The notes below the pieces were generated by a model. It saw only the letters and a list, made by a program, of their open reading frames with translations, was not told the origin of the DNA and ran no database searches. A program made the translations under genes and the position numbers. DNA of 64,000 nt, taken from Promethearchaeati archaeon SRVP18_Atabeyarchaeia-1 (GTDB lineage: Archaea; Asgardarchaeota; Atabeyarchaeia; Atabeyarchaeales; Atabeyarchaeaceae). Positions 64 through 59,180 of the stretch are shown in pieces; the first letter of the stretch is position 1; the number at the start of each line of letters is the position of its first letter. The stretch spans positions 2,016,001 through 2,080,000 of the forward strand of contig CP147779.1 of assembly GCA_037308085.1 (NCBI GenBank), given 5' to 3'.

Positions 64-840
64 CTACCTTCGGCGCCCACCCGGCGGCCGGAGGCGCGCC
101 TCCCCAAGCTGCTTCGCCAGGTCACCCTCCTCGAGCCTATGGCCACATGACGGGCACTTCTCGTTGACGTGCAGGAACTCGAGCAGGTGCACCCTGTGCG
201 CAGCAGCCCCACAGAAGGGGCACCAGGCAAGCAGATCACCCTCCCCAAACCCAAGGTGGCAGACCATGCAGATCCGCAGCCCATCACCCTGCGCCACGGG
301 GGGCGCCGCCTCGGCCGCTTTGCCGGGCGAAGGCGGGGCTCCGACGCCCGCCGCAAGGTTTTCCCCGCAGCTCCAGCAGTAGCCGGCATCCTCGTTGGCT
401 GCGCCGGCGCCGCAGCGCGGGCAGGCGCGCCCCTGGACGGCAGCCTCATCCGCCTTGGAGGGCGCTCCCCAGCGCTCAAGCTCAAAGAGCTCCGCGCTGC
501 CCTTATCCGCGAAGAACATCCTCATCTGCTCGTACTGGTTTTTCAAACTCTTCTTGGTGTCCCCCACGACCAGGAACCTGGCGGCGCATCTGTTTCCGCC
601 GGAACCTGCAATGACCACGAAGACCGTGTCAAGCGTATCCCCGCCGCTCTCCGTGTATACCACACCTAACCTGCCAGACTCGTAGAGGCGGGTTCCCGCC
701 CGATACCCTGCGAGGTTGTTAAGCTTCCCATAGAATTGGGTGAAGGCGTCAATGACCCTGCTCACATCGACACCGGGCCTAAGCCTTAGGCTGACCTCCT
801 CCCACAGGGGCGGCTCCCTCGGAAATCGACCAATAGACAA
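64..840 (-). CDS. Unknown N-terminal domain + zinc ribbon + C-terminal RING-like finger protein
   Basis: CPRCG..CWSCG ribbon; CMVC-x12-CPFC-x4-HRVH-x10-CPSC; N-terminus resembles that of 9960..10811. Confidence 0.8.
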   Translation of the reverse strand: MSIGRFPREPPLWEEVSLRLRPGVDVSRVIDAFTQFYGKLNNLAGYRAGTRLYESGRLGVVYTESGGDTLDTVFVVIAGSGGNRCAARFLVVGDTKKSLKNQYEQMRMFFADKGSAELFELERWGAPSKADEAAVQGRACPRCGAGAANEDAGYCWSCGENLAAGVGAPPSPGKAAEAAPPVAQGDGLRICMVCHLGFGEGDLLAWCPFCGAAAHRVHLLEFLHVNEKCPSCGHRLEEGDLAKQLGEARLRPPGGRRR

Positions 841-1273
841 CTCTCACAACCCCTCTGTCAGAGAGTTAGAACAATGCAGAGATAAGGTTTGCCGTCTCCG
901 CCCTGCCGCCTGAACTCACCCTGCGCAGGCGACAAGCGCTTCGCGATTGCGGGCAATAAGCGGCGGACTCTGTATTACATTACCCCCATTGAGTGGCATT
1001 TCCATAAATGAAAGTATAGGGCTATTTGTAGAAGTTCATGGGAGAAGTCGGCGGATCACCCGAAACCTAATTAAATAGCCTGCTAATTATACAAACCGCG
1101 GTCTGCACTTATTGGCGCAGCCTAGGGAAGGGAAGCCTACCTGCGGTGGAAGCGCCAGGCCCACCCACAGGGAGACCTCAGTCCAAGTTGCAGCCTCTTC
1201 GAGGCAGCCGCAAACCATTATATGCACCCTCCAACGTACCTTCGAAGTAGCCAGCAGGTGAGAGGAAAGGGGG

Positions 1274-1948
1274 CTATCCAAGACGGCGAATAGGAAGGGG
1301 AAGGCCATCCCAGCGCTTGCCCTGCTTGCCCTAGTCTTTCTATCCTCCTCCGCGGTAACCACGTCGCGGGCTGCCGACTACACTAAGGTCGGCGTGAAGG
1401 TGGGGGACAGAGCAGACTATGCAACAGACTACTGGCAGGCTGACCGCCTGGCAATTGAGATCACAAGTGTAGTGGGGGCCGTGGTGTACGCAACGATGAC
1501 AGACTACTGGGCCAACGGCACAGTGGTGAACGTCAACACCTACCATGGCAACATCTCAGCCGGCGGCCTGGAGTTCCTCTACTGCGCAAACCTGCAGAAA
1601 GGCGACAAACTCTACGAAGGATCCACCGGCAAGTGGTTCAACGACACCTTCTCAATGGAGCTCGCCGGCGAGACGAGAACCGTGAACCTGCTGCTCCAAT
1701 TTGGCGATCACGCCTACTTTGATCAGGCAACTGGGATCTTAGCCAAGCTCGTCTCCCTGCCAGGCGAGTGGAACTACACCATGATCTCAACGAACATGTG
1801 GGGGCCTGGCATGGTGGATCCGGTGGCGCTAGCGATCGTTGGTGGAATCGCAGCGATAGCGACAGTGGTAATTGTAGCGGCGGTCAAACTCAAGAAGGCA
1901 GGGAAGTTCGGCGTAGCCGAGCCGACGTTCGGACCCAGGCGCCGCTGA
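1274..1948 (+). CDS. Membrane-anchored surface protein, ADYxKxGVKxGD family (paralog 1); start codon non-canonical or lost
   Basis: Frame is open from TGA 1259 and includes an in-frame signal peptide (IPALALLALVFLSSSAVTTSRA-ADY) upstream of the called GTG 1394; C-terminal TM plus basic tail; N-glycosylation sequons. Confidence 0.7.
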   Translation, partial: LSKTANRKGKAIPALALLALVFLSSSAVTTSRAADYTKVGVKVGDRADYATDYWQADRLAIEITSVVGAVVYATMTDYWANGTVVNVNTYHGNISAGGLEFLYCANLQKGDKLYEGSTGKWFNDTFSMELAGETRTVNLLLQFGDHAYFDQATGILAKLVSLPGEWNYTMISTNMWGPGMVDPVALAIVGGIAAIATVVIVAAVKLKKAGKFGVAEPTFGPRRR

Positions 1949-2209
1949 CCTGCTTTTTTGTGGGTTGGATCTGCCATCCATCACCACCTATTTTCCTTTC
2001 ATGAAGAGTAAAGGTCGGGGCTGACTCCTTGCAAGGAGCCCTCTTTCGTCTTTCAAAGACGCTCCAGTGGGCGCGATGAGAAAAAGCGGAAACCAAGCGG
2101 GGGCTAACGGCCCAACTGCGGAACCAAATCGTTTTATATAGGTGCTTCTAGACAATCTAGACAATCCTCATCATAAGATAACACAACTAAGGGGGATGCG
2201 TCGACTATC

Positions 2210-2830
2210 ATGTCTCGGATAAGTAATAAGGTCACTTTCAGTTTTGCATTAATCGCGCTCGTATTGTTCTCTTCGTCAATCATAGCCACGTCGCAGGCTG
2301 CTGACTACGCCAAGATCGGCGTCAGAGTAGGAGACAGAGCAGACTATTCCATCGCGAACCCTAACCACGACCGGCTACGGCTAGAAGTGACAGAGGTTAC
2401 AGGAGTCTTCGTTAATATCACCATCACAGACTACTGGTCCAACGGCACGGTGGTAGATTTTACCACTGCACGCGGCAACGTTTCAAACGGCGGATTGGCG
2501 GAGGTTCTGCTGTGCGGGGGTCTGCAGGCAGGTGACCTACTTTACCCAGGAGCAGGCATGTACTTCAATTACACCGTAAGCATGGAGATCGCTGGAGCAA
2601 TGAGAACCGTGAATGAGATCATTATCTCAGGCGACCAACACGTATACTACGATCAGGAGACCGGAATATTCGCCAAAATGGCTCACCCGGGTCACTCGAA
2701 CGTTACCATGATCTCGACAAACATGTGGAGACCCGTTGATCCAGTGGTGCTGATTCTCATTGGCGGCGGAGGCGCAGCGGTGGCGGCCATCGTGGTGGCG
2801 GCTATCATCCTTCAAAGGCGCAGGAAGTAG
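2210..2830 (+). CDS. Membrane-anchored surface protein (paralog 2)
   Basis: Signal peptide, ADYAKIGVRVGD, YYDQETGIFAK, C-terminal TM + RRRK; TATA-like TTTTATATA near 2132. Confidence 0.85.
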   Translation: MSRISNKVTFSFALIALVLFSSSIIATSQAADYAKIGVRVGDRADYSIANPNHDRLRLEVTEVTGVFVNITITDYWSNGTVVDFTTARGNVSNGGLAEVLLCGGLQAGDLLYPGAGMYFNYTVSMEIAGAMRTVNEIIISGDQHVYYDQETGIFAKMAHPGHSNVTMISTNMWRPVDPVVLILIGGGGAAVAAIVVAAIILQRRRK

Positions 2831-2886
2831 TAGATGAGTGGCGGCAAGCTGTGGAGCGAGCAGCCCCGCAAACTCCTCCCCTAGCC

Positions 2887-3180
2887 TCTTTTTTTCTGCC
2901 AATTCCTTCGCCGACAAAGGGGAGGAGCAACAGGCCAGCCTCGATTTCTACTCTATCTCCCCGTGGTCCTCTTGCAGACGTCGATCAGCTGTCCGCTATT
3001 CAAGGTGCACATTCGCGCTAGACATATGCGATGCGATGGTCTCCCATATAATTAGGCAGTGGGTCGAGGTACGGACACCTGCCGCCATTGATTCAGTTTA
3101 TTCGTCCCTTGCCGCCCGTTCTGAGGGCGAAGAGGTACATGTGGTGAGCCTCGTTGGCAAGAATATGGATCGAGCTGCAA
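2887..3180 (+). repeat. Diverged direct repeat, copy 1 (terminator, intergenic region and first 9 codons of an arrestin gene)
   Basis: Colinear with 4005..4307, e.g. GTTTATTCGTCCCTTG.CGCCCGTTC.GAGGGCGAAGAGGTACATGTGGTGAG..TCGTTGGCAAGAATATGGAT. Confidence 0.9.
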
Positions 3181-3201
3181 CCAGCATCCCCTGCCAGATA
3201 G
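3154..3201 (+). pseudogene. 5' remnant of an arrestin gene (MARIWIELQ..., stops after 15 codons)
   Basis: Matches MARIWIEMQ, the start of 4281..5402; TAG at 3199. Confidence 0.75.
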
Positions 3202-3337
3202 GCGCCCCCCCGAAGGAGGAGGGGGAGGAGAAGGCCGCTAAGCCAGCGAGCTGCAGCCTGAAGAGTATAAATACAGCCTACAACAAACATCGTAGGCAGC
3301 GCGAGCTGGAACACCAGCAGGAGGATGATGCGAGAGC

Positions 3338-3946
3338 GTGAACAGGAAAACAGCTTCAATCTTGGCTCTTCTGGCGACGCTACTTGTCTGTTCCACAATC
3401 GTGGCGCCCTCAACGGCCGCCGACTACTCGAAGATCGGAGTCAAAGTGGGTGATAGGGCAGACTACTCCATCCAATACGCCGAATGTGACCGGCTGCGGG
3501 TAGAGGTCACAGAGGTAACAGGGACCTTCGTAAACCTGACCTTGACCTATCACTGGTCGAATGGCACAGTGGTAGACCTTATCCATTATGCAGGAAACGT
3601 ATCAAGTGGTGACTTGGCAGACGCCGTGGTATGCGGGGGCCTGCAGGCTGGCGACCCACTCTGGCAGGGTGGCTACCTGTTCTTCAGTAGTACAGTCAAC
3701 TTGGAGATCGCGGGAGAAATGAGAACAGTTAATGACCACACCGATGGTGGCAGCCACTATTACTTCGATCAGGAGACTGGAATCCTGGCGAAGGCTGTGG
3801 CCCCAGGTGGCTCTAACTACACCATGATCTCAACGAACATGTGGGGAGCGGCTAACCCAATGGTGCTGATTCTCATTGGCGGCGGAGCGGCAGTGATCGC
3901 CCTAGTCGCAGCGATTGCGGTACTGGTGAGTAGACGCCGAAAGTAG
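3338..3946 (+). CDS. Membrane-anchored surface protein (paralog 3)
   Basis: Signal peptide, ADYSKIGVKVGD, YFDQETGILAK, C-terminal TM + RRRK. Confidence 0.85.
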   Translation: MNRKTASILALLATLLVCSTIVAPSTAADYSKIGVKVGDRADYSIQYAECDRLRVEVTEVTGTFVNLTLTYHWSNGTVVDLIHYAGNVSSGDLADAVVCGGLQAGDPLWQGGYLFFSSTVNLEIAGEMRTVNDHTDGGSHYYFDQETGILAKAVAPGGSNYTMISTNMWGAANPMVLILIGGGAAVIALVAAIAVLVSRRRK

Positions 3947-4004
3947 GACTCAGAGTCATGCCTAAGGAGAGAGACTCGAAACAACAATATCGCGCTCTTC
4001 TCCA

Positions 4005-4307
4005 TCTTTTTTTTCTGCCAGGTCCTTAGGCGGCAAATGGGAGGAACACCGGGCTAGCCTCAATGCTCAATGTGTACCCTATCTCCCTACGACCCTCTTG
4101 CGAACTTCGATCAGCTGTCTACGATTCGAGGCGCATATGCGCGCTAAATATATGTGGTGCGACGTTTTCCTGTATCATTAGGCGGCGGGGCCCAGATATG
4201 GACCTTTGCCTCCTTCGATTCGGTTTATTCGTCCCTTGTCGCCCGTTCAGAGGGCGAAGAGGTACATGTGGTGAGTTTCGTTGGCAAGAATATGGATTGA
4301 GATGCAA
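4005..4307 (+). repeat. Diverged direct repeat, copy 2
   Basis: Colinear with 2887..3180. Confidence 0.9.
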
Positions 4308-5402
4308 AAGCAAGTCTACTTGCTTGGCGAGGAGGTAAGCGGCATTGTGCACGCCTCCTTGGACAAGCCAATCTCCCAGAGAGGCGCCGCAATACATTTG
4401 ATAGGTAAGGAGAGGACCGAAATCAGCTACCAACAGGCGGTCCAGCCAGGTCATACCCAGCAAACGGGGATAGGGGCTGTAATCCAAGGCTACCAAAGAA
4501 CAGGTCAACCCACTAGTACCCAGCAGACGCGCACGGAAACTGCGGTCCAAGAGTCTGAGTTCTTGCATCAGGAATATCCGATACCCTTGCCGGTAGATGA
4601 GAAGGGAAAGTTTAGTCCTGGAGAGCACGCCGCCCCGTTCAAATTCATGCTGCAGCAAGGTTTGCCGGCAAGCTACGCGGGCCGCCATGCAAGAATCCAG
4701 TACTTAGTAGAGGCGAAGATCGACGTTCCTATGGGTATGGATGTGAGGCAGTCATCTCAGTTTACCGTCGCATCGGCAAATCTTCAGCCCCTCCAATCTG
4801 GACCGGTTACCGCCTACTCCGACTCTTGGGGAAACCCGCAGAGCGCTGGCATCAGCTTCACTATCGAAAGAAGCCAATACGGGAAAGGCGAAGTTGTGAG
4901 TGGCAAGTGCTCCTTCAGAAATCCATCCTCGAAAGACTTGAGGAAGATTGACATCCATCTTAGATGGGTCGAGACGGCAAGCGCTCAAAACCAGAGAGCC
5001 ACAACCGAGGTAATTAGACAGGATTCCCAAATCCCGGTAGGGGGCAGAGTGCTTCAAGGTGAGACACCCTTCAGCATAAACGTACCCGGGCAAGCCCCAC
5101 CTACCTACGAGGCAACACTCTCAAATGTAAGATGCATTTTGAGCGCAAGCATGGACATCGCCATGGGGCTTGATGTCGCTGCAAGCCAGACGATTAGTAT
5201 CGTCGAAAACGCGGGACCTGGGGCGCCTCCGCCTCCCCAACCTCCAGTCAGGCAAGGCGAAGTACCTTGGACAGGCCCAGCGCAGACTTATCAGCCAGCC
5301 AACTACCCCCAACCAGCCGGCGCAGGCGCTTATTGCCCACACTGCGGTGCTAGCATCAAATCAGGCGAACAGTACTGCCCCATGTGCGGCTCCAGATTAT
5401 GA
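4281..5402 (+). CDS. Arrestin-fold (N+C; arrestin/Vps26/SpoOM-like) protein with Pro-rich linker and C-terminal zinc ribbon
   Basis: Y..GEEVSG, PGEH..PFKFML..GLPASY.G....IQY.VEAKID arrestin_N signature; second half repeats the fold; CPHCG..CPMCG. Confidence 0.85.
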   Translation: MARIWIEMQKQVYLLGEEVSGIVHASLDKPISQRGAAIHLIGKERTEISYQQAVQPGHTQQTGIGAVIQGYQRTGQPTSTQQTRTETAVQESEFLHQEYPIPLPVDEKGKFSPGEHAAPFKFMLQQGLPASYAGRHARIQYLVEAKIDVPMGMDVRQSSQFTVASANLQPLQSGPVTAYSDSWGNPQSAGISFTIERSQYGKGEVVSGKCSFRNPSSKDLRKIDIHLRWVETASAQNQRATTEVIRQDSQIPVGGRVLQGETPFSINVPGQAPPTYEATLSNVRCILSASMDIAMGLDVAASQTISIVENAGPGAPPPPQPPVRQGEVPWTGPAQTYQPANYPQPAGAGAYCPHCGASIKSGEQYCPMCGSRL

Positions 5403-5700
5403 AGAACGGTGCAACGGCACATGGAGAATGTCGAGAAGGAGCCTCCAAGGGAATGGCGTGAACTCTCTTCGCTGATCCATCGGTTCACGGCGGCTGTGAA
5501 TAAGCAGCCATCTTCAGCTTGACCTGTGTCTCTTACTTTGGGTCCATGATTTCGTTGGCAGTTTGTGTGCTCTTTTATCGCTTTTGTCGGCGAGAAGCGA
5601 AATCTCCCCTGGCTCGGAGAGCAGGTCTAAGCATATGCTTAAATACGGGGGTGAGCCATACTCGGCTGCAATTCGAGATAAAGTGTGGAGCGAGTTTTCT

Positions 5701-6351
5701 GTGAGGAGGAGCCGAGCTTATTCGCTTGTAGCGCTCTCGATACTCATGGTTCTTGTGGCATCCACTACCCCTGCTGCCGCCGCGGACTACGCAAAGGTTG
5801 GCGTCAAAGTAGGGGACATTGCAACGTACAGGACGGCGATGTCGGGCTCAGCTGTTAACAAGACGGTGTTTCTCGTATATGGGATTGTTGGAACCTCCTT
5901 TTACATCAACTATACGTATTTCCTCCCGAACGGCGCAGTGTCTAGCCAGGGTCAACTTGTCGGGGACACTGTGACTGGGGGCATGTTGAATGTCTTGGTG
6001 ACGAAGAATCTGACGACTAATGACCGGATCTATTCTGGCTCACCGATAAAGATTAATGACTCGGGCATATTGATCTTCGGTGGTATGTCTAGAATCATCA
6101 ACCATGCGAGGATTTCCGGTGGATTGTTTGAATTTTGGTGGGACAAGGACACAGGTCTCGTCGTCAAAATGAACCTCTACTCCGTTGCCTGGCTTAACTT
6201 AACTATGATTTCAACGACAGCTTGGTTTCCCGTGGCTCCCCCGGGCTTGTTCGATAACCCCTTAGCGTTGCCGCTTCTGGTAATGAGCGCTCTTGTAGTC
6301 GCGCTTCTTGTAGCGATACTTGTTGTAGCTAGACGCAAGAAGCACAGATGA
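5701..6351 (+). CDS. Membrane-anchored surface protein (paralog 4, more divergent)
   Basis: GTG 5701 precedes the signal peptide; ADYAKVGVKVGD, WWDKDTGLVVK, TM + RRKKHR. Confidence 0.8.
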   Translation: MRRSRAYSLVALSILMVLVASTTPAAAADYAKVGVKVGDIATYRTAMSGSAVNKTVFLVYGIVGTSFYINYTYFLPNGAVSSQGQLVGDTVTGGMLNVLVTKNLTTNDRIYSGSPIKINDSGILIFGGMSRIINHARISGGLFEFWWDKDTGLVVKMNLYSVAWLNLTMISTTAWFPVAPPGLFDNPLALPLLVMSALVVALLVAILVVARRKKHR

Positions 6352-9335: not shown

Positions 9336-9752
9336 TCAGATGTAGCTGATCTGAGAGTACTTGCCGTTCACCTCATTTATCTCCCCTTCAAGCGCGTTGA
9401 GTTCTTCCTTTATCATGTCGAAGAGTTCCGGTGTGCTGCCGTTTATCTCCGTTTCACCGATCTTCTCTTCGATGATCTTGACGTACTTCTTGGCGAGCTG
9501 CTTGGCCACAGCCACGTTGACTCTCGAGATCGCGGCGAGCATGAGCCTTCGGCCCACCGCCAAGCTGATCTGGTTTCTGCCAGTGACCACCTGCTCAATC
9601 GACTCGCTTAGAACGCTCAATGTAAATGATCGGATGGCACTTAGGGCGGAGACCGCTAGCTCTGACTTGGCTCCGGGCGGTGCCCCGAAGAACCTGTCGG
9701 CAATCAGAAGACCCTCCTTTGTCCCCAGAATATAGCCGAAAATCATCGACAT
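9336..9752 (-). CDS. Small longin/roadblock-like domain protein
   Basis: Likely start MSMIFG (9752); pattern G.LI..R...L.VSALSAI.SF...VL...IE.V..G; homologous to 16819..17232. Confidence 0.6.
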   Translation of the reverse strand: MSMIFGYILGTKEGLLIADRFFGAPPGAKSELAVSALSAIRSFTLSVLSESIEQVVTGRNQISLAVGRRLMLAAISRVNVAVAKQLAKKYVKIIEEKIGETEINGSTPELFDMIKEELNALEGEINEVNGKYSQISYI

Positions 9753-9959
9753 CTCGAGAACACCACTTGAGGCGAACTCCCTCTCTCTTACCGAGTGAAG
9801 AGCTTCACTTGCCCCTAAAGCTTTTCTCCTCACGTCCTCCTTGGCGCCGCATTGAGAGAGTGATGCCATGATGAAGCGTATATGCAACAAGCTCTCACGA
9901 ACCCCGAGGTTTCTCTTGGGCATAAGAGAGATATATGCGGGAGGCGCGTAGTCAATTAC

Positions 9960-10811
9960 ATGTCGGTGAGACTGTCATTCGTCTTGAGGGGTAATTCAAG
10001 TATCCGCCAGCTAATGGATGTTTTTCGTGCCCAGTTCCACAAGGAAATACGGTTCAGGAAGGTCACCAAGTACGTCTTTGAGTCGGAGAAGACGTACCTG
10101 CTCATAGCGGAAAGAGAGAACTTCGCCGCCGCTGTCCTTCTTCAGCAAGACGGAGGCTCTTGGAGAGCACTGATTTCCCCGCAGCGCGTTTGGAACGAGG
10201 AAGTGTCTTTCTATCGGGGTGAAGAGTCTATCTTGGCCGAGCTCAAGACCTTCTTCACCCAGAAGTGTGCAGACATGATAACCGTAGTGAGCGCATGGAC
10301 GAGCAGCGATGAGAAGGAAGAACCACGTCAATCTGAGGATGACGATGTTACCCCCCTCTACTCGGAAATCAGCGAAGAGGGCACCATGACACGCTGCCCA
10401 AAGTGTGGAGCCGCGGAGATCATATTTCCCAACCAACGTAAGTGCTCGAAGTGCGGCACCGAGATAGTGAGAAAAGGCAGCTACCCAGAACCAGATGAGG
10501 CGGAGGAAGAAGCTGGCCCGCCTCCCACGGTTGTCCAATCTAAAGGCGCGGAGGTTGGCAAGTGCATGGTCTGTGGCATGGGCATCCATCAAGGCGAACC
10601 CCTCGCGTGTTGCCCGAGCTGCGGAGGCAGGGCGCACCGCGTACACCTGCTGGAGTTCGTTCACGTGAAGGGGGAATGCCCTTCCTGCCACAATCACATA
10701 GTAGAGGAAGACATAGCAGAACGAGTTTCGCATCAAGAAGTCGCAGGGAGCGCGTCTAACCGGAGAACACGCGTGAAAGCTGGATTCCCCAAGAAAAGCG
10801 GCGCCGAATAG
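9960..10811 (+). CDS. Unknown N-terminal domain + zinc ribbon + RING-like finger protein (paralog of 64..840)
   Basis: CPKCG..CSKCG; CMVC-x12-CPSC-x4-HRVH-x10-CPSC; ATG 9960 follows a TATA-like ATATAT. Confidence 0.8.
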   Translation: MSVRLSFVLRGNSSIRQLMDVFRAQFHKEIRFRKVTKYVFESEKTYLLIAERENFAAAVLLQQDGGSWRALISPQRVWNEEVSFYRGEESILAELKTFFTQKCADMITVVSAWTSSDEKEEPRQSEDDDVTPLYSEISEEGTMTRCPKCGAAEIIFPNQRKCSKCGTEIVRKGSYPEPDEAEEEAGPPPTVVQSKGAEVGKCMVCGMGIHQGEPLACCPSCGGRAHRVHLLEFVHVKGECPSCHNHIVEEDIAERVSHQEVAGSASNRRTRVKAGFPKKSGAE

Positions 10812-10879: not shown

Positions 10880-12190
10880 CTACTCATAGTCTTGCTCATT
10901 AAGGGCCCTTCCACATGCTGGACAGGTCTTGTTGCTGCGAATCCAATCTATGAGGTGCTGTCTATGCGCTAGTTTTCCGCAGTGGGGGCACCACACCACG
11001 TCGTCCCGCTGCCCGAGCTCGCCGCCACAGACCGTGCAGGCCTCTGTCACCTCTGCCTTGAGAGACGTGCTCCTCTTGATCTTTACCTGAAGGCTTTTCG
11101 CGGGAGCGGCCACCACCCTCGGCTCTGAGGGAATCTTCGCGCCGCAGTACGGGCAGAACTCGGGGCTTGGTGTCTTGAGGGTGGCGCCGCAACTGGGACA
11201 TCGGGCTGCTGGTCTCTGCCCAGTCTCTGTGGGTTTTTCCCTTGACCCCACGCGTTGACTCTGAAGTGGCTTCTGCGGAATACTCACCAGAAAACCGCTG
11301 CGCTTCTCCAGCTGCTGGGGAGGGAGAACCTTGTCGCCTACTGGGCTATCAACAACCCTTATGGTTGCAGTTGCTGCAACGTCTTCCCCCATAGATATAT
11401 CCAAGTTCGCCGTGAGGATGCACCTGAGGTTGAAGAGAGTTCTCTCGAAAGTCAATGGGGCGTCTTTGGGTATTGGAATACTGAAGGAGTTCTCGCCCTT
11501 GAGCACCCTGCTCCCCAAGGGTATTACGACGTCCTGTTCCACCAGATCAGTTTTGCCTTCATGGCCTTCGGCAACCGCGTTCTCAACCCATTTCAGCGAT
11601 ATGTCGATCTTTCTCAGGCTCTTCGTGCCCGGGTTCCTGAAGGCGCAACTGCCGCCGAGAACACTCCCTCTCTCGCATTCGAGCCCGCCCAGGCGGAGGC
11701 GGAGACCGGCGCTCGACTCTTCGCTCCAGAGGTCCGAGCTTACTTCAACTGGCCCAGAGGCCAGTGCTGGCTCCTGAAGGCTTGAGACTACGGTAATCTC
11801 GAATAGGTCCCTGATGTCGAATGCATTGGGGATATCGATCTTCGCGGCTATCCCATAGGTGATCTTAGCTTTAGTCCCTTCGTAGGTCCCCGGAAGCGTT
11901 TCGGGGAGTACGAACCTAAAGGGAATGGTGTAGTCCCCGGGCTCCAGCTTTCCTTTCCCGTTCACCGGCAGAGGCAACATGGACTCTTGGTGCAGAAACT
12001 CGGACTCCTCTCTCGCCTTAGCCCTGTTCTTTCCTGCCTGGTATTCCACCTCTGTTCTCTCCTTGCCTATCAGTGCCAGCATAGAACTTCTTTGAGAGGT
12101 AGACTTGTTCAGCGATACGTGCAGGAAGCCGCTTACCTCGTCACCAGGAACGTAGATTACCTTCTGAAGATCTATCCCCATTTCACTCAT
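10880..12190 (-). CDS. Arrestin(N+C)-zinc ribbon-RING-like fusion protein
   Basis: PGDYTIPFRFVLPETLPGTY..KITY.I.AKID; CPSCG..CPYCG; CTVC-x12-CPHC-x4-HRQH-LIDW..CPAC. Confidence 0.85.
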   Translation of the reverse strand: MSEMGIDLQKVIYVPGDEVSGFLHVSLNKSTSQRSSMLALIGKERTEVEYQAGKNRAKAREESEFLHQESMLPLPVNGKGKLEPGDYTIPFRFVLPETLPGTYEGTKAKITYGIAAKIDIPNAFDIRDLFEITVVSSLQEPALASGPVEVSSDLWSEESSAGLRLRLGGLECERGSVLGGSCAFRNPGTKSLRKIDISLKWVENAVAEGHEGKTDLVEQDVVIPLGSRVLKGENSFSIPIPKDAPLTFERTLFNLRCILTANLDISMGEDVAATATIRVVDSPVGDKVLPPQQLEKRSGFLVSIPQKPLQSQRVGSREKPTETGQRPAARCPSCGATLKTPSPEFCPYCGAKIPSEPRVVAAPAKSLQVKIKRSTSLKAEVTEACTVCGGELGQRDDVVWCPHCGKLAHRQHLIDWIRSNKTCPACGRALNEQDYE

Positions 12191-12384
12191 GGAGTTATCC
12201 CCCTGCCTCTTCAATATGTGTGGATTCGTCCCGCTTGGTTGAAAGCGCGCCAGAGCTTATGCGTCTCAAATCTAGTAGCCATCACACATATATATCCCGG
12301 TTCGGTTCAACCCCCACGGCGTCGGGGCTCGCCAAGGATCAGGTGCGCACATGGTGGAAAGCTCGGTTCTCGCCGATTAGCCTC

Positions 12385-13779
12385 CTACCTGTAGTCCGCC
12401 TCCTCCAAGCTCTTCCCGCAGGCGGGGCAGCTCTTACTGCCAGCGATCCACTCAAGGAGATGCCCTCTATGCGCGAGTCTGCCGCAGTGGGGGCACCAAA
12501 CAACATCATCGCCCTGGCCGAGCTGACCGCCGCAGACTGTGCAGGCTTCTAACCCCTGCGCCTTGGGGGGAGCGGTTCTCCTAACTCTCACCTCTGTGGC
12601 CTCCGCCACAGCAGGCGCTTCCCTCGGTCCTGCCAGGAGCCTCGCACCACAGTACGGGCAGTAGCTGGCGTTGGGTGTCCTCAGGTTGGCGCCACAGTCG
12701 GGGCACTGCACCACTGGTCCTGGCACAGTCCCAGGTAGACTCACCGGGCGACCTGCATATGTATTTTGATATGCCTTCTCGGAGGGCTTCTCCGAGGCAC
12801 CGTAACTCTCAGCCGGGGAGTAAGGCATGGCTTTCCCACGCTCCACGTACCCGAAGATCCTGATGGGCTGATCCGCCGCCACGTCCGACGCCCAGGCCAC
12901 GTCGAGGTCTGTTCTCAGAACACACGTTACGCTTGCGAGGGGCGACTCGAAGGTTAGCGGAGCATCCTGGGGTATCGGGATACTGAAGGGGCTCTCACCT
13001 TTCGGCAGCTTGCCTCCAAGGGGCACCTCAGCAGCCTGCTTCATTACGTCGGTTGTCACAGTATGGCCTTGGGCATTCGCTGTCTCAACCCACCTCATTT
13101 CCACCCCGATCTTCCTCAGGCTCTTGGAGTCAGGATTCCTGAAGGCGCACCTCCCACTCAAGACTTCCCCCTGCCCATATTCACAGCGATCCAGCCTGAA
13201 GCTGATGCCGGGGCTCTCCGGGCTTCCCCAGTTGGCTGAGCAGGCATCGACCGGCCTAGGCGCGGAGACCTGGGCCCCTGTGAGAACATCAAACTCACAC
13301 GACTCGTTAACGTCAGACCCCATGGGCACATCGATCTTCGCGGTGATCACATACGTGATTCTCGCGTGGTTGCCCCTATACGTTGCCGGCAGACCTTGCG
13401 AAAGCGTGAATCTGAAGGGGAACTTGTAGGTCCCAGATAGGGCGCGCCCCTTCTCGTCAGGAGGCAGAGGCAAAGGGCTATCTTGGCGCAGGAACTCGGA
13501 CTCTTCAACCGCAGTTCGATGCTCCATCGTCGAGCCTCCTCCAAAGGTTGAGCGCCCCCCAAAGGTTGAACGCGCACCGAATCCCCGATGCCCCGTGACG
13601 TGTACCGTGGTGGTGTAACTGACCTCGGTCCTCACCTTCCCCAGCAATTGCAGCAAGGCGCTTTTAAATGAGACTGGTTTATCCAACGAAACGAGTACGT
13701 TGCCGCTTACCTCTTCACCAGGGAGGTAAGCCTTCTTCGGAAGATCTATCCTCATATCCCCCATACGCTGACCATCCAT
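12385..13779 (-). CDS. Arrestin(N+C)-zinc ribbon-RING-like fusion protein
   Basis: Same architecture; GTYKFPFRFTLSQGLPATY; HRGHLLEW..CPAC. Confidence 0.85.
   Translation of the reverse strand: MDGQRMGDMRIDLPKKAYLPGEEVSGNVLVSLDKPVSFKSALLQLLGKVRTEVSYTTTVHVTGHRGFGARSTFGGRSTFGGGSTMEHRTAVEESEFLRQDSPLPLPPDEKGRALSGTYKFPFRFTLSQGLPATYRGNHARITYVITAKIDVPMGSDVNESCEFDVLTGAQVSAPRPVDACSANWGSPESPGISFRLDRCEYGQGEVLSGRCAFRNPDSKSLRKIGVEMRWVETANAQGHTVTTDVMKQAAEVPLGGKLPKGESPFSIPIPQDAPLTFESPLASVTCVLRTDLDVAWASDVAADQPIRIFGYVERGKAMPYSPAESYGASEKPSEKAYQNTYAGRPVSLPGTVPGPVVQCPDCGANLRTPNASYCPYCGARLLAGPREAPAVAEATEVRVRRTAPPKAQGLEACTVCGGQLGQGDDVVWCPHCGRLAHRGHLLEWIAGSKSCPACGKSLEEADYR
13541..13582 (-). repeat. In-frame 18-bp tandem repeat (FGARST-FGGRST-FGGGST)
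   Basis: CCAAAGGTTGA recurs at an 18-nt period on the + strand. Confidence 0.8.
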
Positions 13780-14212: not shown

Positions 14213-15514
14213 CTATCTGTAATCCTCCTCGTTGAGGCTCTTTCCGCAGGCAGGGCAGCTCCTGTTCCTGGCAATCCACTGCAGAAGGTGCTCCCTATGT
14301 GCCAGTTTACCGCAGTGGCGGCACCAGACTACGTCGTCGCGCTGGCCGAGTCCATAGCCGCAGACGGTGCAGATCTCCATCCCCACCACCTCTGAATCTT
14401 CGCTTTTCTCGGTGTTGACCTGCACGCCTCTTGCCATAGGAGTGACCTCTCTCGACTCTCCCCGGATTCTCGTGCCACAGTGTGTGCAGTAGTTGGCGTC
14501 CCTAGCTCTGAGAGAATTGCCACAGCTAGGGCACCTTGTGGCGGACATCCGCCCAGCCTCTGCGAGGTACTCGCCGCGATCTGATAAGTCAGACTCATCT
14601 GGTTTCTCCAGAATACCCTTTGCCGTAGCCTTCTCCCCGAATCTTGGATATGAGACTGCGCCTTCCCCGTATCCCTGGCTCGCGATGATTATTGTCTTTT
14701 GTGCTTCAACGTCGCTTCCCAGAGCGACGTCCAGTTTCGCGGCGAGGACGCATCTCACGCTTGATAGGGGCGATTTATAGGTCAGCGGGGCATCCTGGGG
14801 TATCGGGATGCTGAAGGGGCTCTCACCTTTCAAGAGCCTGCCTCGGAGCGGTACGTGAATGATCTCCTCCGCCACCTCAGCCCTTGCCTTGTGGTCCCCG
14901 GCCTTTGCTGCTTCGATCCATTTCAAGGTAAAGTCAAACTTCCTCAGGTTCTTGGAGCCTGGGTTCCTGAAGGCGCACCTCCCGCTCAGGACTTCCCCCC
15001 GCCCATATTCACAGCGATCCAGCCTGAAGTTGATCCCAGGGCTCTTGGGATCGTCCCAGGAGTCTGAGCAGGCGTTGGTCGGTTCGGACCGGAAAACCGG
15101 GAACCCCGAGGTAACCCCGAACTCACGCGAGTCTCCAATGTCGAACCCTAGAGGAACATCGATCTTGGCTGTTATCGTATACAGGATCTCGACATTCCTC
15201 CCCTTGTACGTTCCTGGGAGCCCTTCCGGGATCATGAATCTGAAGGGGATGTCATAGTCTCCTGCTCTGAACCTCCCTCCCTCGTCAGTTGGCAGAGCTA
15301 CCGGAAGTTCTCGGTAGAGGAACTCCCGCTCTTCGACCGCTGTGGCGGTGCTTTCCCCTGCTGAGTAAGTGACACTCGTTCTTTCCTTCCCCATCATGCA
15401 TATCGTGGCACTCCTGCTGGAAACTGGTTTATCTAGGAAAAGGTGCACGAAGCCGCCCACATCTTCCCCTGGATAGTGAAGTGACTTCTGAATATCTATC
15501 TGTGCTCTGCGCAC
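14213..15514 (-). CDS. Arrestin(N+C)-zinc ribbon-RING-like fusion protein
   Basis: GDYDIPFRFMIPEGLPGTY; CPSCG..CTHCG; HREHLLQW..CPAC. Confidence 0.85.
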   Translation of the reverse strand: MRRAQIDIQKSLHYPGEDVGGFVHLFLDKPVSSRSATICMMGKERTSVTYSAGESTATAVEEREFLYRELPVALPTDEGGRFRAGDYDIPFRFMIPEGLPGTYKGRNVEILYTITAKIDVPLGFDIGDSREFGVTSGFPVFRSEPTNACSDSWDDPKSPGINFRLDRCEYGRGEVLSGRCAFRNPGSKNLRKFDFTLKWIEAAKAGDHKARAEVAEEIIHVPLRGRLLKGESPFSIPIPQDAPLTYKSPLSSVRCVLAAKLDVALGSDVEAQKTIIIASQGYGEGAVSYPRFGEKATAKGILEKPDESDLSDRGEYLAEAGRMSATRCPSCGNSLRARDANYCTHCGTRIRGESREVTPMARGVQVNTEKSEDSEVVGMEICTVCGYGLGQRDDVVWCRHCGKLAHREHLLQWIARNRSCPACGKSLNEEDYR

Positions 15515-16818: not shown

Positions 16819-17232
16819 CTACCAGACCGCTTCCCGCATCTTCTGGTCCGAGTCCTTGAAGAAGCGGTCGTAGGCTGCATCCAGAGTCTGGGTGGCGTCC
16901 TTTAGAGTCTCCCAATTCTCGGAGTACTCTTGGGGTGGGAAGTTGCTGAAAAAGATGTTCTGCAGCTCCTCTAGTTCTTTCTTGACTACGCTCCCCTTTG
17001 CGTTGAGTTCTGTGCGGGTGATGAAGAGCAGCTTGTGGGCCGAAGCAACGAAGTACATTGAATTCCCTATGGAGACGGATTCCAGTTCACCTGACAGCGT
17101 CTTCTTCGCGAAGGAGTCCATAGCAGTCATAAACCCTGGGAGGAGGTGCTGCTCTGCCTGCTTCTCAGTGGACTTGGAGTATATGCTCGTGCCAGCATCC
17201 GTAACTACGTAGAAGTGGGTTATCATTGGCAT
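16819..17232 (-). CDS. Small longin/roadblock-like domain protein
   Basis: FYVV..AG.SIY.....LL.GFM.AM.SFA.....GELE.V.IG pattern, typical of Asgard longin-like proteins. Confidence 0.7.
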   Translation of the reverse strand: MPMITHFYVVTDAGTSIYSKSTEKQAEQHLLPGFMTAMDSFAKKTLSGELESVSIGNSMYFVASAHKLLFITRTELNAKGSVVKKELEELQNIFFSNFPPQEYSENWETLKDATQTLDAAYDRFFKDSDQKMREAVW

Positions 17233-17255: not shown

Positions 17256-17987
17256 TTACTGCCTGAGGCGTCTCGGCAGAACGAATCCAATGTAGAGCAG
17301 AATCCCAGAGATTCCCGCCGCGATCCAGCCCGCGATGACCCAGTAAGTGTAGCCTTCCGGCTCGAAGAACGCTGTCCAGACGCTGTCCATGACGAACAGC
17401 AGGTAGGCTACGATTATGCTTAGGGCTGCCAAGCGGATGTAGGAGAATCCTCGCCTCGCAATCTGGTCGGTTGTTCCGTGAATTGCGCGCGTTGTCGCCA
17501 TGATAAGCGTGAGGTATAGCGCCAGGGCGAAGGTGAGGTGGACCAGAAGGAGAACTGTGAACGTGTCGAGGAGTGTTGAACCAGTAGCCATTGTTGGGCC
17601 GAGGATGGGCAACAGCACCGCGACCGCTCCTTCCACCACGCCGAAGATCTTCAGTCTTGCTCCTCCGGATTCTCTGCCCTTATAGAAGATCTCCAACATG
17701 AAGAGGTACAGGAAAATGTTGGCTATAGCCGACATTGAGAAGGCTAGGCTCAGGCCGACCCTCCGAATGCCGACTAGAGGATCCATGACTAGCATGTCCA
17801 GAAGCTGCATGCATGTGGTCAGACTCAGGAATAGCGAGGTGAGGGTGATGTAGCGTGTAGCAGGCTGCCTGCGCTCCCTGTACCGCCCGAAAAGCTTCAG
17901 TGTCAGAAACACGAGTATTGCCGTTATTATCACTTGGCTCAGGAAGACCATGAGCACTCGCTCGTTGAAGAAGACTACGCCCAGCAT
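17256..17987 (-). CDS. Seven-transmembrane protein
   Basis: Seven hydrophobic helices, basic loop after TM1, ends LLYIGFVLP; 23 nt upstream of the longin-like gene. Confidence 0.75.
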   Translation of the reverse strand: MLGVVFFNERVLMVFLSQVIITAILVFLTLKLFGRYRERRQPATRYITLTSLFLSLTTCMQLLDMLVMDPLVGIRRVGLSLAFSMSAIANIFLYLFMLEIFYKGRESGGARLKIFGVVEGAVAVLLPILGPTMATGSTLLDTFTVLLLVHLTFALALYLTLIMATTRAIHGTTDQIARRGFSYIRLAALSIIVAYLLFVMDSVWTAFFEPEGYTYWVIAGWIAAGISGILLYIGFVLPRRLRQ

Positions 17988-18346
17988 TGCCCAACACCTA
18001 TTCAACTAATCGGCTCCGAAACTAACAAGATTATCTCGTGAGGGATTTCTAATATACGTTTCGGGGAAGGTGCGAGGATCGCAAGAAGCGCCGAGCCTGC
18101 GCTCTCACCGACTGGGAACCGTGAAGCCGAAAAGCGTGACGGGCAAGACATTGAGAACTTACCTTTGAAAGCAGAGGCAATGGGCCCCGCCCCAGCTATC
18201 TATTTAAGCCTTCGACAAGCTATGTTCTGGAGGCAACTTCATCCACGAGCAGACTGCCAACCCCAAGCATCCCCTAGCCCTCAAGGGGCACAGAAGCAGT
18301 TCCCTCAGAAATATATATTTAACCTTAGATGGATGGAGGAGGTAGC

Positions 18347-19533: not shown

Positions 19534-19538
19534 GGCTC

Positions 19539-50133: not shown

Positions 50134-50231
50134 CGGAAACAGGGGCAACTCTCCTTTTTTTGTCGCGTGCATCTTCTCCGCGTAGAGATGGAACGATGGT
50201 CTGATAAAGCAACGCATAAATAGAGAGTCAT

Positions 50232-51149: not shown

Positions 51150-51171
51150 CTGATCAGGGGAGTGACCCTAC

Positions 51172-54518: not shown

Positions 54519-54583
54519 ATCTCCCCGATGGTGCTACCAGAACACAGTTCACTCAATAGTTCGACCCAAGGCCCTACTGGAGA

Positions 54584-54766: not shown

Positions 54767-55278
54767 TCCTAAACACCTTCTGAAGCTTCCAAAATAGCAT
54801 TCTAGTTAACACTAGCATTGAAGGCAAATTACCTTTTCCCATTTGCGCATGAACCCGACCAGCTGAACTTGCGAATACTGGGCGGCAAAAAGTTTCCCAG
54901 TTGCGTTCAAACAAAATAAGAACTTAGAAGTCACTCTATGAGCGCGCTTTAATTTCAACTTCCAGTATCCAGTCTGGGAGGTCCTCTCTCGTAGAGCGAC
55001 CTTGATTGAGATTGCACCCAAGACACTGCTGGTCTCAGGATCTGGATGACGATGTCAATATCACGTAGTTGTGGACCAGATTCACCACAGTTGATGGGCT
55101 AATTTCCTCTTGACTCGACGAAATCGATGCGGAAACGCACCCGAATCCTGGATTTGATGGCGAGGGCTTCCGGACCGCGATGAGAACACCTATTTCTCCT
55201 TTTTAGTCTGACTTTTCACTTCAGAAGCGGCTTTCTGAGCCATCTTCCTCAGCATAAAGTAGCTTTCTGGTATCTTCA

Positions 55279-55449
55279 TCATCTAACCCATTCATCTCCT
55301 ATGTCGTTGACGCGTGGATAGTGCGCGCTAGGAGTGAAGGTGAATTTCAGCATGCGTATCTCTGCGTCCGACTTGCTTCGAGTGGAGCCAACAAGTGGCT
55401 TGCCGAGCGGCTCCTGCAGTCTCCTATACACATCATCACTAATCGACAA
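55279..55449 (-). pseudogene. 5' remnant of a paralog of the 4Fe-4S protein at 6637
   Basis: DVYRRLQEPLGKPLVGSTRSKSDAEIRMLKFTFTP aligns to DVYRKLRKHLDEFPIGFPSTKSGVEIRLLKYFFTP; SD-like GGGAGGGG and TATA upstream. Confidence 0.7.
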
Positions 55450-55751
55450 TTCTCACGAATCCCCTCCCTTCTGACGTTCCCTCTCCCAGTCCGGCGACAC
55501 AGCATCGCCGGCTGGCTGTAAAAGACATCTTATACCTCAGTATATAAAGCCATCTCGGGGGGGAGGGGGAGTGAATCTCGAGGGTCAACATAAATTCTGG
55601 GACTGGGGCGCCTCGAACCTAGCTAAGGTCCACCATCGCGCGCGAGAGCCAAAAACAGCTAGCCTTGCGCACTGGATCCTTCGAGGAAGAGAGAAGACTG
55701 GTGGCTTCTTGGACTTTCACATTTAATGTCTCTAATAATGCTTCGCAGGCA

Positions 55752-56894
55752 TTAATCCCGCGGATTCCGGGGGGAGCCTCGAACCTTCAAGGCAACGACC
55801 TCCTGTCCCAGATACTCTGCAGCGGAGGTGACGCGTTTTCCATTCTCTTTTGCGACCTTGTAGACGTCAGCCACTCGCTCTCTGAACAACGGGTCTCTCA
55901 TCAAATGATGGTCATAGATCATTAGCTTTGTTCGGTCGGCTTCTCGGATGATACGGCAAGCGTTATCTATTGCCCTGGCAAACGCGGTCCGACCCACAAC
56001 CACGCCATATAGGTAGGTGGGAGGCCCATCGATGAACAACACATCTGGGTTTTCCCTAATTATCCAGTCAGCGTAATCCTCAATGACAGGACCCTCAAAA
56101 TCAGACGAGTGGAGGAGCTTCACACCGTTATGCTCAACAACAGTTGAAGAAACCCAGCCTAACCTATCATACTCGACTCCATGGAATAGTGGGGGAGAGA
56201 ACCGCAATACCGTGTTCCCAATCTCTACTTTCTTGTCATCAGTGAACATGAACTTCGTGTTTCCGAAGTTCAACTCGGGAATCCACTTGTTGGAGGACCA
56301 CATCCTGCAGAGACTCTTAAACCAATTTCTACCTCTTTCGAGGATCTCGTTTCTACGTTGCTGGTATCCCTTGAAATCCTTGCTCATGGCTAGCTGCATC
56401 GTCTCTTCAGGATCTCCGAAGTCGGCGCTCTGAGGGGAGGTGAGAAACTCGTCCAGCTTGGCTCCGTTCCTATACTTGCCGAGGATCTGGCTGAAGAATG
56501 TTCTAGCCCTCGCCCATTGCGAAAAGTTGATGAATTGGTTCGGGTTCTTCGCGAGGACCAACTTGCCCCGATAAAGGCTTGGGCAGTCAGCCGATCTAAG
56601 GTTAACGCGGCAGTAGTGGTCGTAATGATAGTGCGAAATGACAATGACTTGCGCCTTTCGAGCTGCCTCGCTTATTCTTCTTAGAGCTCTGAGCCTGTAG
56701 AGAGCCTTCTTCAGCCTGGACATCGGAAACCCCTTCTGCATGCCCGATGCGCCGGGATCAATGAGTATGGAGACATCGGGCGTCCAGACTAGAACTGAGC
56801 TGGATTTCGCTCCAAGCGAATCATACCACAAGACTTGAAAATCCAGCCCCTTCAAGCCGGAAACGGTGGCTGTATGGTCACGATCCACAAGCAT
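55752..56894 (-). CDS. MBL-fold metallo-hydrolase (UPF0282-like)
   Basis: DSLGAKS, IDPG, ISHYHYDH, HG...LG.V, SSD..GP, DHH..RD. Confidence 0.85.
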   Translation of the reverse strand: MLVDRDHTATVSGLKGLDFQVLWYDSLGAKSSSVLVWTPDVSILIDPGASGMQKGFPMSRLKKALYRLRALRRISEAARKAQVIVISHYHYDHYCRVNLRSADCPSLYRGKLVLAKNPNQFINFSQWARARTFFSQILGKYRNGAKLDEFLTSPQSADFGDPEETMQLAMSKDFKGYQQRRNEILERGRNWFKSLCRMWSSNKWIPELNFGNTKFMFTDDKKVEIGNTVLRFSPPLFHGVEYDRLGWVSSTVVEHNGVKLLHSSDFEGPVIEDYADWIIRENPDVLFIDGPPTYLYGVVVGRTAFARAIDNACRIIREADRTKLMIYDHHLMRDPLFRERVADVYKVAKENGKRVTSAAEYLGQEVVALKVRGSPRNPRD

Positions 56895-57134
56895 CAAAGG
56901 CTCCCCTAACAACATGATTGAATAGGGCCAAAGCATAAATCACTTCCTAGCATTATCGCGTTCTTCTAGCTCGCATGGCATTCCAGTTGTGGAGCGGGCC
57001 ACAGAGCGTTGGTCCTGGAGTTCCGCCAACGGCTACGCGTGCCTTGCACATTACTGCTCGCCTCCATACATTTATAGGGTGGTCATTCACAAAAAAAGAT
57101 CAGTGTGATAGGTGGAGAGGCGAGAAGGGGGAAG

Positions 57135-59180
57135 ATGAGAAGGCTCTCTTATCGAAGCGCAGGCTCGCTAACCTGCAAAGCAGTTGTCATAATGATCCTC
57201 GCGTTGTCAGTAGTAGCATCACTGCAGCCGCTGCTTGTGACTGCAGGCAAGCATAGCCAGTGGGCAAATCCTGCAGCAATGGCAGTAGTTGGGGGCCAGG
57301 AACCGACGGAAGCGAGCCCCCCAGCAAATGTGACAACGCACTGGACCTACGGCGCGGGCCAATGGGCTGTTTCTTCTCCAGTCATCGCCGACGTGAACCG
57401 AGATGGTAAACTGGAGATAATCGTAGGCTCTATGGACAACAAGGTCTACTGCTTGAATAGTGGAGGCGGATTAGCCTGGACATACACGACTGGGAATTAT
57501 GCCTATAATGTCGGCGCTGTCGCGGACATTGATAACGATAGCAAGGTGGAGGTAGTCTTCGCCTCATGGGATCGCAAGATCTACTGCCTGGATGGAGCAG
57601 GCGGGCAAAAGTGGAACTACACAACGTACCCCAACGTTCCAGGATACTGCCTGTTGGTAGGTTCTCCTACCCTCGCAGACATCGACGGCGACGGCAAGAT
57701 GGAGGTAATCATAGCTTCCGACAAAGTCTGGTGTCTGAATAGTACGGGTGGATTAAAGTGGGCATACAACCTGGGCGAACCTGCCGGGGACTCATGCAAA
57801 GTCGCTGACGTTGACGGGGATGGCAAGATGGAGATAGTGTTCGGGGCATACGACAACAAGGTCTACTGCCTCAACGCAACGGGCAAACTGGAGTGGACAT
57901 ACACAACGGGAGGTGCTGTCAGAACCTCATCTGCAATCGCTGATGTGGACGGAGACGGCAAGACGGAGATAGTCATAGGCTCAACTGACAACAAAACCTA
58001 CTGCCTAGGCGGAACAGGCGGGCTTAAGTGGAGTTTTGAATCTGGAGGCGTGATCTTCTCTTCTCCTGCGACCGCCGATGTTGATCAAGACGGCAAGGTA
58101 GAGATAGTGTTCGGCTCAGATGACAGCAGGGTTTACTGCCTAAGTGGAGTATCCGGCGCAATGAAGTGGAACTACACAACAGGAGGCTATGTCCAGTCTT
58201 CCCCTACAATCGCTGACATTGACGGAGATTCGAGGCTAGAGATAATTATCGGGTCGGACGACCGGCAAGTCTACTGCTTCGACGCGTTCGGCAACGTAGA
58301 GTGGACATACGCAACGGTGGGAAACACCACTACAAAGCCTGCTGTTGCAGATGTGGACGGCGATGGTGCATTGGATCTTGTCGTTGATTCGGATAAGGTA
58401 TACTGCTTCAGCGTTCCTCCAAGTCGTACGAGCTTGATTTGGGGCTCTATGGATGGCTGGACGATCGGGGGTGGCATCGCCCAGTCGTTTGACGGCACAG
58501 CTGGTGGCTGGGTGGAGATCGACATGCAAGTCTCATCTGGGATGTTCAACTTCCTAGTCTTGGACAACAGCGACTGGAGCGCCCACTATAACACTTTTCC
58601 CTACATATTTGATCATCCTTATGCCAATGCCACGGGAGTCACGGGAAACACCACGGTGTTCGTCCAGATTCCTCTGAGCGGGCAGTACTGGATCTACATC
58701 AACACCTATGGTGCACCCATGAACAATAACAGTGCCTCATATCAGGTCTGGCTCTGGAATCAGACTCCACCTAGTCAGACGGGATCTTTGCCTCCAGGCC
58801 AGACGGGATCGACGCCTTCGGGAAGCATTTCGCCACTTGTTGTCTGGCTAGGCGTCGGATCCGTGGGCTTCGCCGTGGTGGCGGTTCTAGCGGTGAGGGG
58901 AAGAAGTAAGGCGGGGAGGTACATCCCCGGTGAAAGCGCGGCGGGCCCAGAAGCGACAGTGGGGACGGCTGGCAGTGATGGGCGGGCAATGCGCGAGTCT
59001 GGTACACCAAGCTTTGGGCGATGCATCGTCTGCGGCATGGAAATTCGCCGAGGAGAGATGCTTGTCACATGCGCTTCGTGCGGAAGCATGGCCCACAGAC
59101 TGCACATGCTGGAATGGTTACACGTCCATGATTACTGCCCGGCCTGCGGAAAGCACCTAGATGAGCGATCTCTCACGTGA
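57135..59180 (+). CDS. Single-pass receptor-like protein: signal peptide, 8 FG-GAP/Ca-blade repeats, beta-sandwich, TM, cytoplasmic RING-like finger
   Basis: 8x ADxDxDGxxE..GS.D..VYC; TM LVVWLGVGSVGFAVVAVLAV then RGRSK; CIVC-x12-CASC-x4-HRLH-MLEW..CPAC. Confidence 0.85.
   Translation: MRRLSYRSAGSLTCKAVVIMILALSVVASLQPLLVTAGKHSQWANPAAMAVVGGQEPTEASPPANVTTHWTYGAGQWAVSSPVIADVNRDGKLEIIVGSMDNKVYCLNSGGGLAWTYTTGNYAYNVGAVADIDNDSKVEVVFASWDRKIYCLDGAGGQKWNYTTYPNVPGYCLLVGSPTLADIDGDGKMEVIIASDKVWCLNSTGGLKWAYNLGEPAGDSCKVADVDGDGKMEIVFGAYDNKVYCLNATGKLEWTYTTGGAVRTSSAIADVDGDGKTEIVIGSTDNKTYCLGGTGGLKWSFESGGVIFSSPATADVDQDGKVEIVFGSDDSRVYCLSGVSGAMKWNYTTGGYVQSSPTIADIDGDSRLEIIIGSDDRQVYCFDAFGNVEWTYATVGNTTTKPAVADVDGDGALDLVVDSDKVYCFSVPPSRTSLIWGSMDGWTIGGGIAQSFDGTAGGWVEIDMQVSSGMFNFLVLDNSDWSAHYNTFPYIFDHPYANATGVTGNTTVFVQIPLSGQYWIYINTYGAPMNNNSASYQVWLWNQTPPSQTGSLPPGQTGSTPSGSISPLVVWLGVGSVGFAVVAVLAVRGRSKAGRYIPGESAAGPEATVGTAGSDGRAMRESGTPSFGRCIVCGMEIRRGEMLVTCASCGSMAHRLHMLEWLHVHDYCPACGKHLDERSLT

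Follow-up and report, generated by a model that had tools for sequence, protein, structure and literature searches.

The window analysed here is a 64,000-nucleotide stretch (CP147779.1, positions 2,016,001 to 2,080,000) of the genome of Promethearchaeati archaeon SRVP18_Atabeyarchaeia-1, a single contig of 2,808,651 bases. It carries six genes, which we refer to by their first position (64, 9960, 10880, 12385, 14213 and 57135), each encoding a predicted RING finger of the pattern C-x2-C-x12-C-x2-C-x4-H-x2-H-x10-C-x2-C (C4-H-H-C2) close to its C-terminus (Table 1). A six-frame regular expression search returned exactly six matches in the window, against a chance expectation of 2e-8 from residue frequencies, confirming the six genes and the exact spacing reported in the initial annotation. 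All six copies continue as H6-x3-W/F-x6-C-P, with F in the 64 and 9960 genes and W in the other four, so the aromatic residue and the CP stand, as first described, at the spacing by which RING-type ubiquitin ligases (E3s) contact the ubiquitin-conjugating enzyme (E2). The cationic linchpin, usual but not universal in RING E3s, is absent from all six, the position being G in five and H in one. A C4 zinc ribbon stands just before the RING in five of the six genes, the 57135 gene having none.

Table 1. RING genes of the window (six-frame regex matches), a RING-less arrestin paralogue and the stand-alone RING gene elsewhere in the genome.
Gene	Extent	Strand	Layout (N- to C-terminal)	Zinc ribbon	RING match	Remarks
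64	64..840	-	alpha/beta domain (no family name), C4 zinc ribbon, RING	367-423	145-270(-)	258 amino acids
9960	9960..10811	+	alpha/beta domain, zinc ribbon, RING	10395-10454	10563-10688(+)	front end a remote relative of that of the 64 gene
10880	10880..12214	-	arrestin N and C lobes, zinc ribbon, RING	11144-11200	10913-11038(-)	Pfam Arrestin_N 4e-17
12385	12385..13779	-	arrestin N and C lobes, zinc ribbon, RING	12649-12705	12418-12543(-)	Pfam Arrestin_N 1.5e-24, Arrestin_C 1e-8
14213	14213..15514	-	arrestin N and C lobes, zinc ribbon, RING	14477-14533	14246-14371(-)	Pfam Arrestin_N 5.5e-16
57135	57135..59180	+	signal/anchor segment, FG-GAP beta-propeller, beta-rich domain, single transmembrane helix (about 58824-58898), cytoplasmic RING		59022-59147(+)	Pfam FG-GAP_3 3.6e-39; hydropathy
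RING-less paralogue	4281..5402	+	arrestin N and C lobes, zinc ribbon			
Stand-alone RING	C1:330920-331167		RING, about 82 amino acids			directly upstream of ubiquitin, E2 and E1 genes

The RINGs stand behind three different architectures, as had been proposed: arrestin lobes in three genes, an alpha/beta domain in two, and an FG-GAP propeller with a transmembrane helix in one. The AlphaFold model of the 12385 arrestin matched ARRD-6 (2e-16), VPS26C (2e-15), VPS26 and TXNIP; the 10880 gene has an orthologue in P0155, and P0153 is the nearest relative of the 14213 gene. The alpha/beta front ends of the 64 and 9960 genes are remote homologues of each other (hhalign 83%, E 9e-6), returned no named family from the ESM Atlas, and were not found in five related genomes by single-protein queries, and homologues of the 64 gene with identical architecture are P0093, P0114, P0116 and P0113. 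The reading frame of the 9960 gene opens at 9882, the ATG at 9960 being the start position in its homologues, and the gene has a syntenic orthologue on a related metagenome contig (L070). On that contig four RING genes with alpha/beta front ends lie beside two arrestin-RING genes (L070:3910-10268), and the alpha/beta front end therefore appears to be an expanding family of its own. Propeller and RING share a single frame in the closely related genome G002 and in five representative sequences as well (P0096, P0044, P0040, P0031 and P0150), and the genome also holds a RING-less paralogue of the propeller (C1:1869536).

A census with a profile hidden Markov model found 29 RING domains in 28 genes of the genome, 23 of them with the exact spacing, and matches in 317 of 400 Asgard genomes. 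The motif, initially called invariant, is so in the six window copies but not genome-wide, as ligand 6 is H in 23, D in five and E in one of the 29 domains. The RING is nearly always C-terminal, behind a long low-complexity linker, with a zinc ribbon just upstream in 20 of the 28 genes and a transmembrane helix before it in about 14 (hydropathy); the small members with ribbon and RING only have frames of 124-199 amino acids. No match to the canonical RING-HC, RING-H2 (C-C-C-H-H-C-C-C) or C4HC3 patterns was found in the genome. The genes are clustered, 24 of the 28 falling within 0.68 Mb, a quarter of the chromosome (G000:C1:1675254-2357682). Relatives with two to four RINGs per chain also exist (P0003, P0004, P0005 and P0008), among which P0008 combines four RINGs with leucine-rich repeats and, by inspection only, an apparent TIR domain.

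Only one copy in the genome is both stand-alone and beside ubiquitin and E2 genes (Table 1); it also adjoins genes for JAB, UEV-Vps23, Vps28 and EAP30, and the fused paralogues in the window lie 1.7 Mb away from it. A RING gene likewise stands beside ubiquitin-operon genes in other Asgard genomes, and the exact C4-H-H-C2 spacing was shared by all 34 short relatives, drawn from records under the names Odin-, Hel-, Hod-, Freyr-, Jord- and Lokiarchaeota. Given these short relatives and the breadth of the profile matches, C4-H-H-C2 is the normal Asgard E3 finger, used in multiple copies beyond Atabeyarchaeia: many families are multi-copy, although copies per genome are lower bounds because at most 16 candidates per genome were scored, and three other complete genomes have 13, 1 and 2 copies (E 1e-8). 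The suggestion of a lineage-specific variant set apart from known archaeal RINGs was thus not upheld, since the ubiquitin-operon E3 of Asgard archaea ordinarily carries this finger. A Planctomycete match (L083) was discarded because it lay outside any motif-bearing frame.

The domain is, then, a known kind of protein, a RING finger in public annotation, which has been assayed once. The RING adjoining a ubiquitin that ends in GG-SPKN has the exact C4-H-H-C2 spacing and is 100% identical to that of Hel_GB_B NODE_4, and a preprint reports that the E1/E2/RING/ubiquitin set of the latter mono-ubiquitinated UEV-Vps23 in vitro, with the N-terminal loop of the RING protein contributing to substrate binding (bioRxiv 10.1101/2023.07.25.550441). 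The window copies share with this operon E3 the spacing, the V/I, the W and the CP, and 15-22 of 42 core residues with the genome's own operon copy, but they are without the conserved N-terminal loop, carry large fused front ends, lie outside the operon and mostly have G at the linchpin, against K in Hel_GB_B. In effect, 27 other proteins have received a copy of the operon E3's finger at their ends; six of these proteins are encoded in the window, three of them arrestin-like and one surface receptor-like.

The predicted fold agrees with this assignment. The three best PDB matches of the profile are RING-H2 ligases (RNF24, 2e-9; EL5, 3e-8; Arkadia, 5e-8), the AlphaFold model of the RING has a predicted local distance difference test (pLDDT) score of 89.9, and its top rows in Foldseek are RING E3s at probability 1.0 and TM-scores of 0.70-0.83, RING E3s also leading the VIA fold search. 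The domains have the eight spaced zinc ligands of the RING superfamily and, in the model, its treble-clef fold and central helix. The ligand order C-C-C-C-H-H-C-C departs from the C-C-C-H-H-C-C-C of RING-H2 (C3H2C3): aligned to RNF24 and EL5, H5 falls on the canonical H5, H6 on the canonical C6 and C4 on the canonical C3; the canonical H4 position carries no ligand, and its role passes to an additional Cys that lies three residues before the canonical C3. The domain would accordingly be arranged, judging from this alignment, as a cross-brace with a C2H2 site (C1, C2, H5, H6) and a C4 site (C3, C4, C7, C8); that ligand 6 can be H, D, E or C across the family fits a role in metal binding. Eukaryotic RING-H2 fingers (RNF24, EL5, Arkadia/RNF165 and RNF38) are the best matches in both sequence and fold, with H5 and the W-x6-CP spacing aligned, but the Asgard ligand 6 is His and not Cys and the linchpin is usually not Arg.

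Other known families are more distant or overlap in part. RINGv and PHD fingers are C4HC3, whereas none of the 29 domains has Cys at ligand 6. All 23 exact copies match Pfam Prok-RING_1 (PF14446) at E<=0.01, and four of the six window proteins exceed its 29.1-bit gathering score, but the alignment is limited to about positions 4-33 of the 54 in the profile, and the second half of the RING follows zf-RING_2 instead. The Caldiarchaeum subterraneum protein srfp (CSUB_C1477), compared by its published description only, is an archaeal RING E3 with I30 and W58, whose W58 and R69 imply the W-x6-C-P-x-C spacing, and for which ligands 3-4 are noted to be shifted and an extra Cys to be present, but it is described as C3H2C3 and single-domain with an Arg linchpin (PMC5654768).

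The RING had been described as a portable module, and its portability holds, although the mobile unit is usually the zinc ribbon together with the RING, and the six genes amount to about three fusion types and not to six events, as the three arrestin genes are tandem duplicates. A RING-less arrestin with a ribbon (Table 1), a form also present in the two closest genomes, G002 and G003, likely represents the pre-fusion architecture. Arrestin-RING fusions were seen only in this genome and in three metagenome proteins, and in the tree (52 columns) the arrestin RINGs nest within the soluble ribbon-RING paralogues with support of 96/85 and 97/84; this nesting, together with the RING-less relatives, supports shuffling of the RING in the case of the arrestins. 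The simplest reading of these sequences is that an arrestin may have gained a linker-RING or ribbon-linker-RING segment once, followed by tandem duplication; as the arrestin-lobe tree leaves the single-clade status of the fusions unsettled, the direction of fusion is an inference. Four paralogous secreted beta-rich proteins, each with a C-terminal transmembrane helix and a basic tail, flank the RING-less arrestin (1394-1948, 2210-2830, 3338-3946 and 5563-6351, all on the forward strand).

In eukaryotes, alpha-arrestins recruit separate HECT ligases (Nedd4/Rsp5) via PPxY tails. The window fusions have the same two-lobed arrestin fold, but the RING is built into the protein, and the PPxY motif is absent from all three. 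Similarly, the 57135 gene has the ectodomain-transmembrane-RING topology of PA-TM-RING receptor ligases such as RNF13 and ZNRF3, with an FG-GAP propeller in place of the PA ectodomain. These likenesses, to alpha-arrestins and Vps26 and to PA-TM-RING proteins, are analogies of layout, not orthology. The arrestin-RING fusion, which unites an arrestin and a RING that in eukaryotes sit on different proteins, looks recent and restricted to some Atabeyarchaeia, and for that reason represents a parallel solution and gives no evidence on the eukaryotic ancestor.

The residues through which a RING meets its E2 are kept throughout the family: V/I at position 2, W/Y/F and P are each present in 29 of 29 domains, F or Y replacing W in four. 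With the predicted fold, this supports a likely E3 role for the window domains, as initially proposed. The genome's one catalytic E2 retains its Cys, the loop-4 PF and the loop-7 PA; the second UQ_con match is UEV-Vps23. Compared with the syntenic locus on L070, the RINGs are under purifying selection, with ratios of nonsynonymous to synonymous substitution (dN/dS) of 0.08 (10880 gene), 0.26 and 0.12 (9960 gene) over 48 codons, against 0.25-0.28 in the front ends. In the 14213 gene (14213-15514 vs. L070:924-2288) the synonymous distance was 0.48 in the RING and 1.25 in the arrestin part, a discrepancy that gene conversion between the tandem genes or noise in a small sample might explain. When the 12385 RING was modelled in complex with the E2 of the genome, the prediction had a score of 0.00 and a mark of 0.32, which we used neither for nor against an interaction.

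We consider it probable that the fused copies are putative E3 modules placed behind substrate or sensor front ends. The six window domains are paralogous to the small RING finger E3 encoded in the ubiquitin-ESCRT (endosomal sorting complex required for transport) operon of Asgard archaea, each predicted to fold as a cross-brace RING which, via V/I, W and P, would recruit the single catalytic E2 charged with ubiquitin and promote ubiquitin transfer to a target picked by the N-terminal domain, the front end taking the place of the short N-terminal, UEV-Vps23-binding loop of the operon copy. The arrestin-fold copies may then tag the cytoplasmic faces of membrane proteins, the propeller copy may act as a receptor-type membrane ligase, and the ubiquitinated products would pass to ESCRT or the proteasome. 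The analysis shows the motif, the copy number, the homology to the operon E3, the predicted fold, the co-occurrence with E2, the purifying selection and the one shuffling event, and we infer the zinc geometry, E2 binding, ligase activity, substrates and downstream fate of the fused copies.

In favour of such a role, a strong RING match was found in 46 of 46 E2-positive and 0 of 14 E2-negative genomes (60-genome sample, with all candidates scored for the negatives), but these counts are not independent because the E2-negative genomes belong to only five families, and they are a suggestive indication and not a statistical test. Several observations weigh against the role. The Foldseek E-values are middling, 2e-3 at best, as is the VIA match by the tool's own note (Z 7.3, root-mean-square deviation 2.1, 52 aligned), and a RING fold is by itself no proof of ligase activity; for the Helarchaeia assay, the available part of the preprint leaves a minus-E3 control unstated (bioRxiv 10.1101/2023.07.25.550441). 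The linchpin is R/K in only four of the genome's 29 domains (G in 13), compared with 19 of 34 operon-type proteins, and in RNF38 a linchpin of G or H weakens binding of ubiquitin-charged E2 36-fold or 22-fold, respectively (PMC12326332). As the linchpin is seldom basic, the fused copies may be weak or non-catalytic.

The likeliest alternative takes this last point further: the fused copies would be attenuated or pseudo-ligases that keep the E2-facing surface but, instead of being ligases by themselves, soak up E2, serve as scaffolds or pair with the operon E3 as hetero-RING partners. The shift of the linchpin from basic to G/S/H points this way, also among the best 150 representatives (G 63, R 20, H 19, K 12), as do D/E at ligand 6 in six domains and the change from W to F in two window copies. 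However, the linchpin is non-basic (G, N, A, S, Q or H) in 15 of the 34 operon-type copies too, including the genome's own, which has N, and since this operon copy and others with G do without it, Arg seems dispensable there in this lineage; in eukaryotes, too, RINGs such as those of Doa10 and XIAP are active with a His or Tyr linchpin (PMC12326332). We regard attenuated or pseudo-ligases as unlikely. A little less likely still is that the RING ubiquitinates its own carrier in cis, as a portable tag for turnover or sorting, the front ends being cargo with functions of their own and not substrate receptors. The RING-less versions of both arrestin and propeller, the nearly constant C-terminal position behind a long low-complexity linker and the transmembrane helix before the RING in about half of the genes would all suit a tag, but the small ribbon-RING members have no obvious cargo function, and the N-terminal segment of the operon copy, according to the Helarchaeia preprint, helps bind a separate substrate. 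We give very little credence to a ubiquitin-independent zinc module (PHD, C1 or LIM type, or two separate ribbons) binding peptide, lipid or nucleic acid, for which there are a PHD-like spacing at ligands 3-5 (C-x2-C-x4-H), matches to KMT2D/KMT2C PHD fingers over the first half only (E about 6e-3) and PHF7 at rank 50 in the VIA list, but against which the full-length sequence and fold matches are RING/U-box E3s, and the operon position, the Helarchaeia assay and the absence from E2-negative genomes tie the RING to ubiquitin.

The fused copies, read as putative E3 modules, suggest a repertoire of many ubiquitin ligases around a single conjugating enzyme, in the manner of eukaryotes. According to the 2017 Caldiarchaeum paper, the small RING proteins identified in archaea had all been single-domain, the expansion of multidomain E3s being eukaryotic (PMC5654768, supplementary note 6), and a 2024 review also describes archaeal systems as using single-domain proteins (PMC11354881). 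Domain shuffling in general has already been reported for Asgard signature proteins, but our search of an incomplete library found no description of an Asgard arrestin-RING, of a multidomain RING expansion or of the C4-H-H-C2 pattern. That Asgard archaea built a modular network of many E3s and one E2 through a C4-H-H-C2 RING radiation of their own, its members including arrestin ligases that are complete in themselves and receptor-type membrane ligases that feed ESCRT, is a possibility to which we would assign slightly less than an even chance. If true, prokaryotes too would have evolved combinatorial E3 architecture, so far regarded as an invention of eukaryotes. With its 28 RING genes and single catalytic E2, this complete Asgard genome makes it directly testable whether the closest prokaryotic relatives of eukaryotes have substrate-specific E3 repertoires.

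Among the neighbours of the arrestin-RING array, a Longin-like protein (16819-17232, reverse strand; Fuz_longin_1, E 3e-5, below the cut-off) lies 1.3 kb away, behind a multi-transmembrane protein without a Pfam match (17256-18005, reverse strand); the pair is a candidate partner of the arrestins, the sole link being adjacency. A small protein of longin/roadblock appearance by inspection, with no Pfam or NCBIfam match (9336-9923, reverse strand), is kept beside the array at L070:6885-7295. Outside the ubiquitin operon, the genome has a second ThiF/E1-family gene (G000:C1:2724108-2724809, reverse strand), probably a sulfur-transfer or SAMP-type activator. Finally, in one ubiquitin-ESCRT cluster a gene that appears TnpB-like by inspection is situated between the Vps28 and EAP30 genes (L005:4172-5434, reverse strand).

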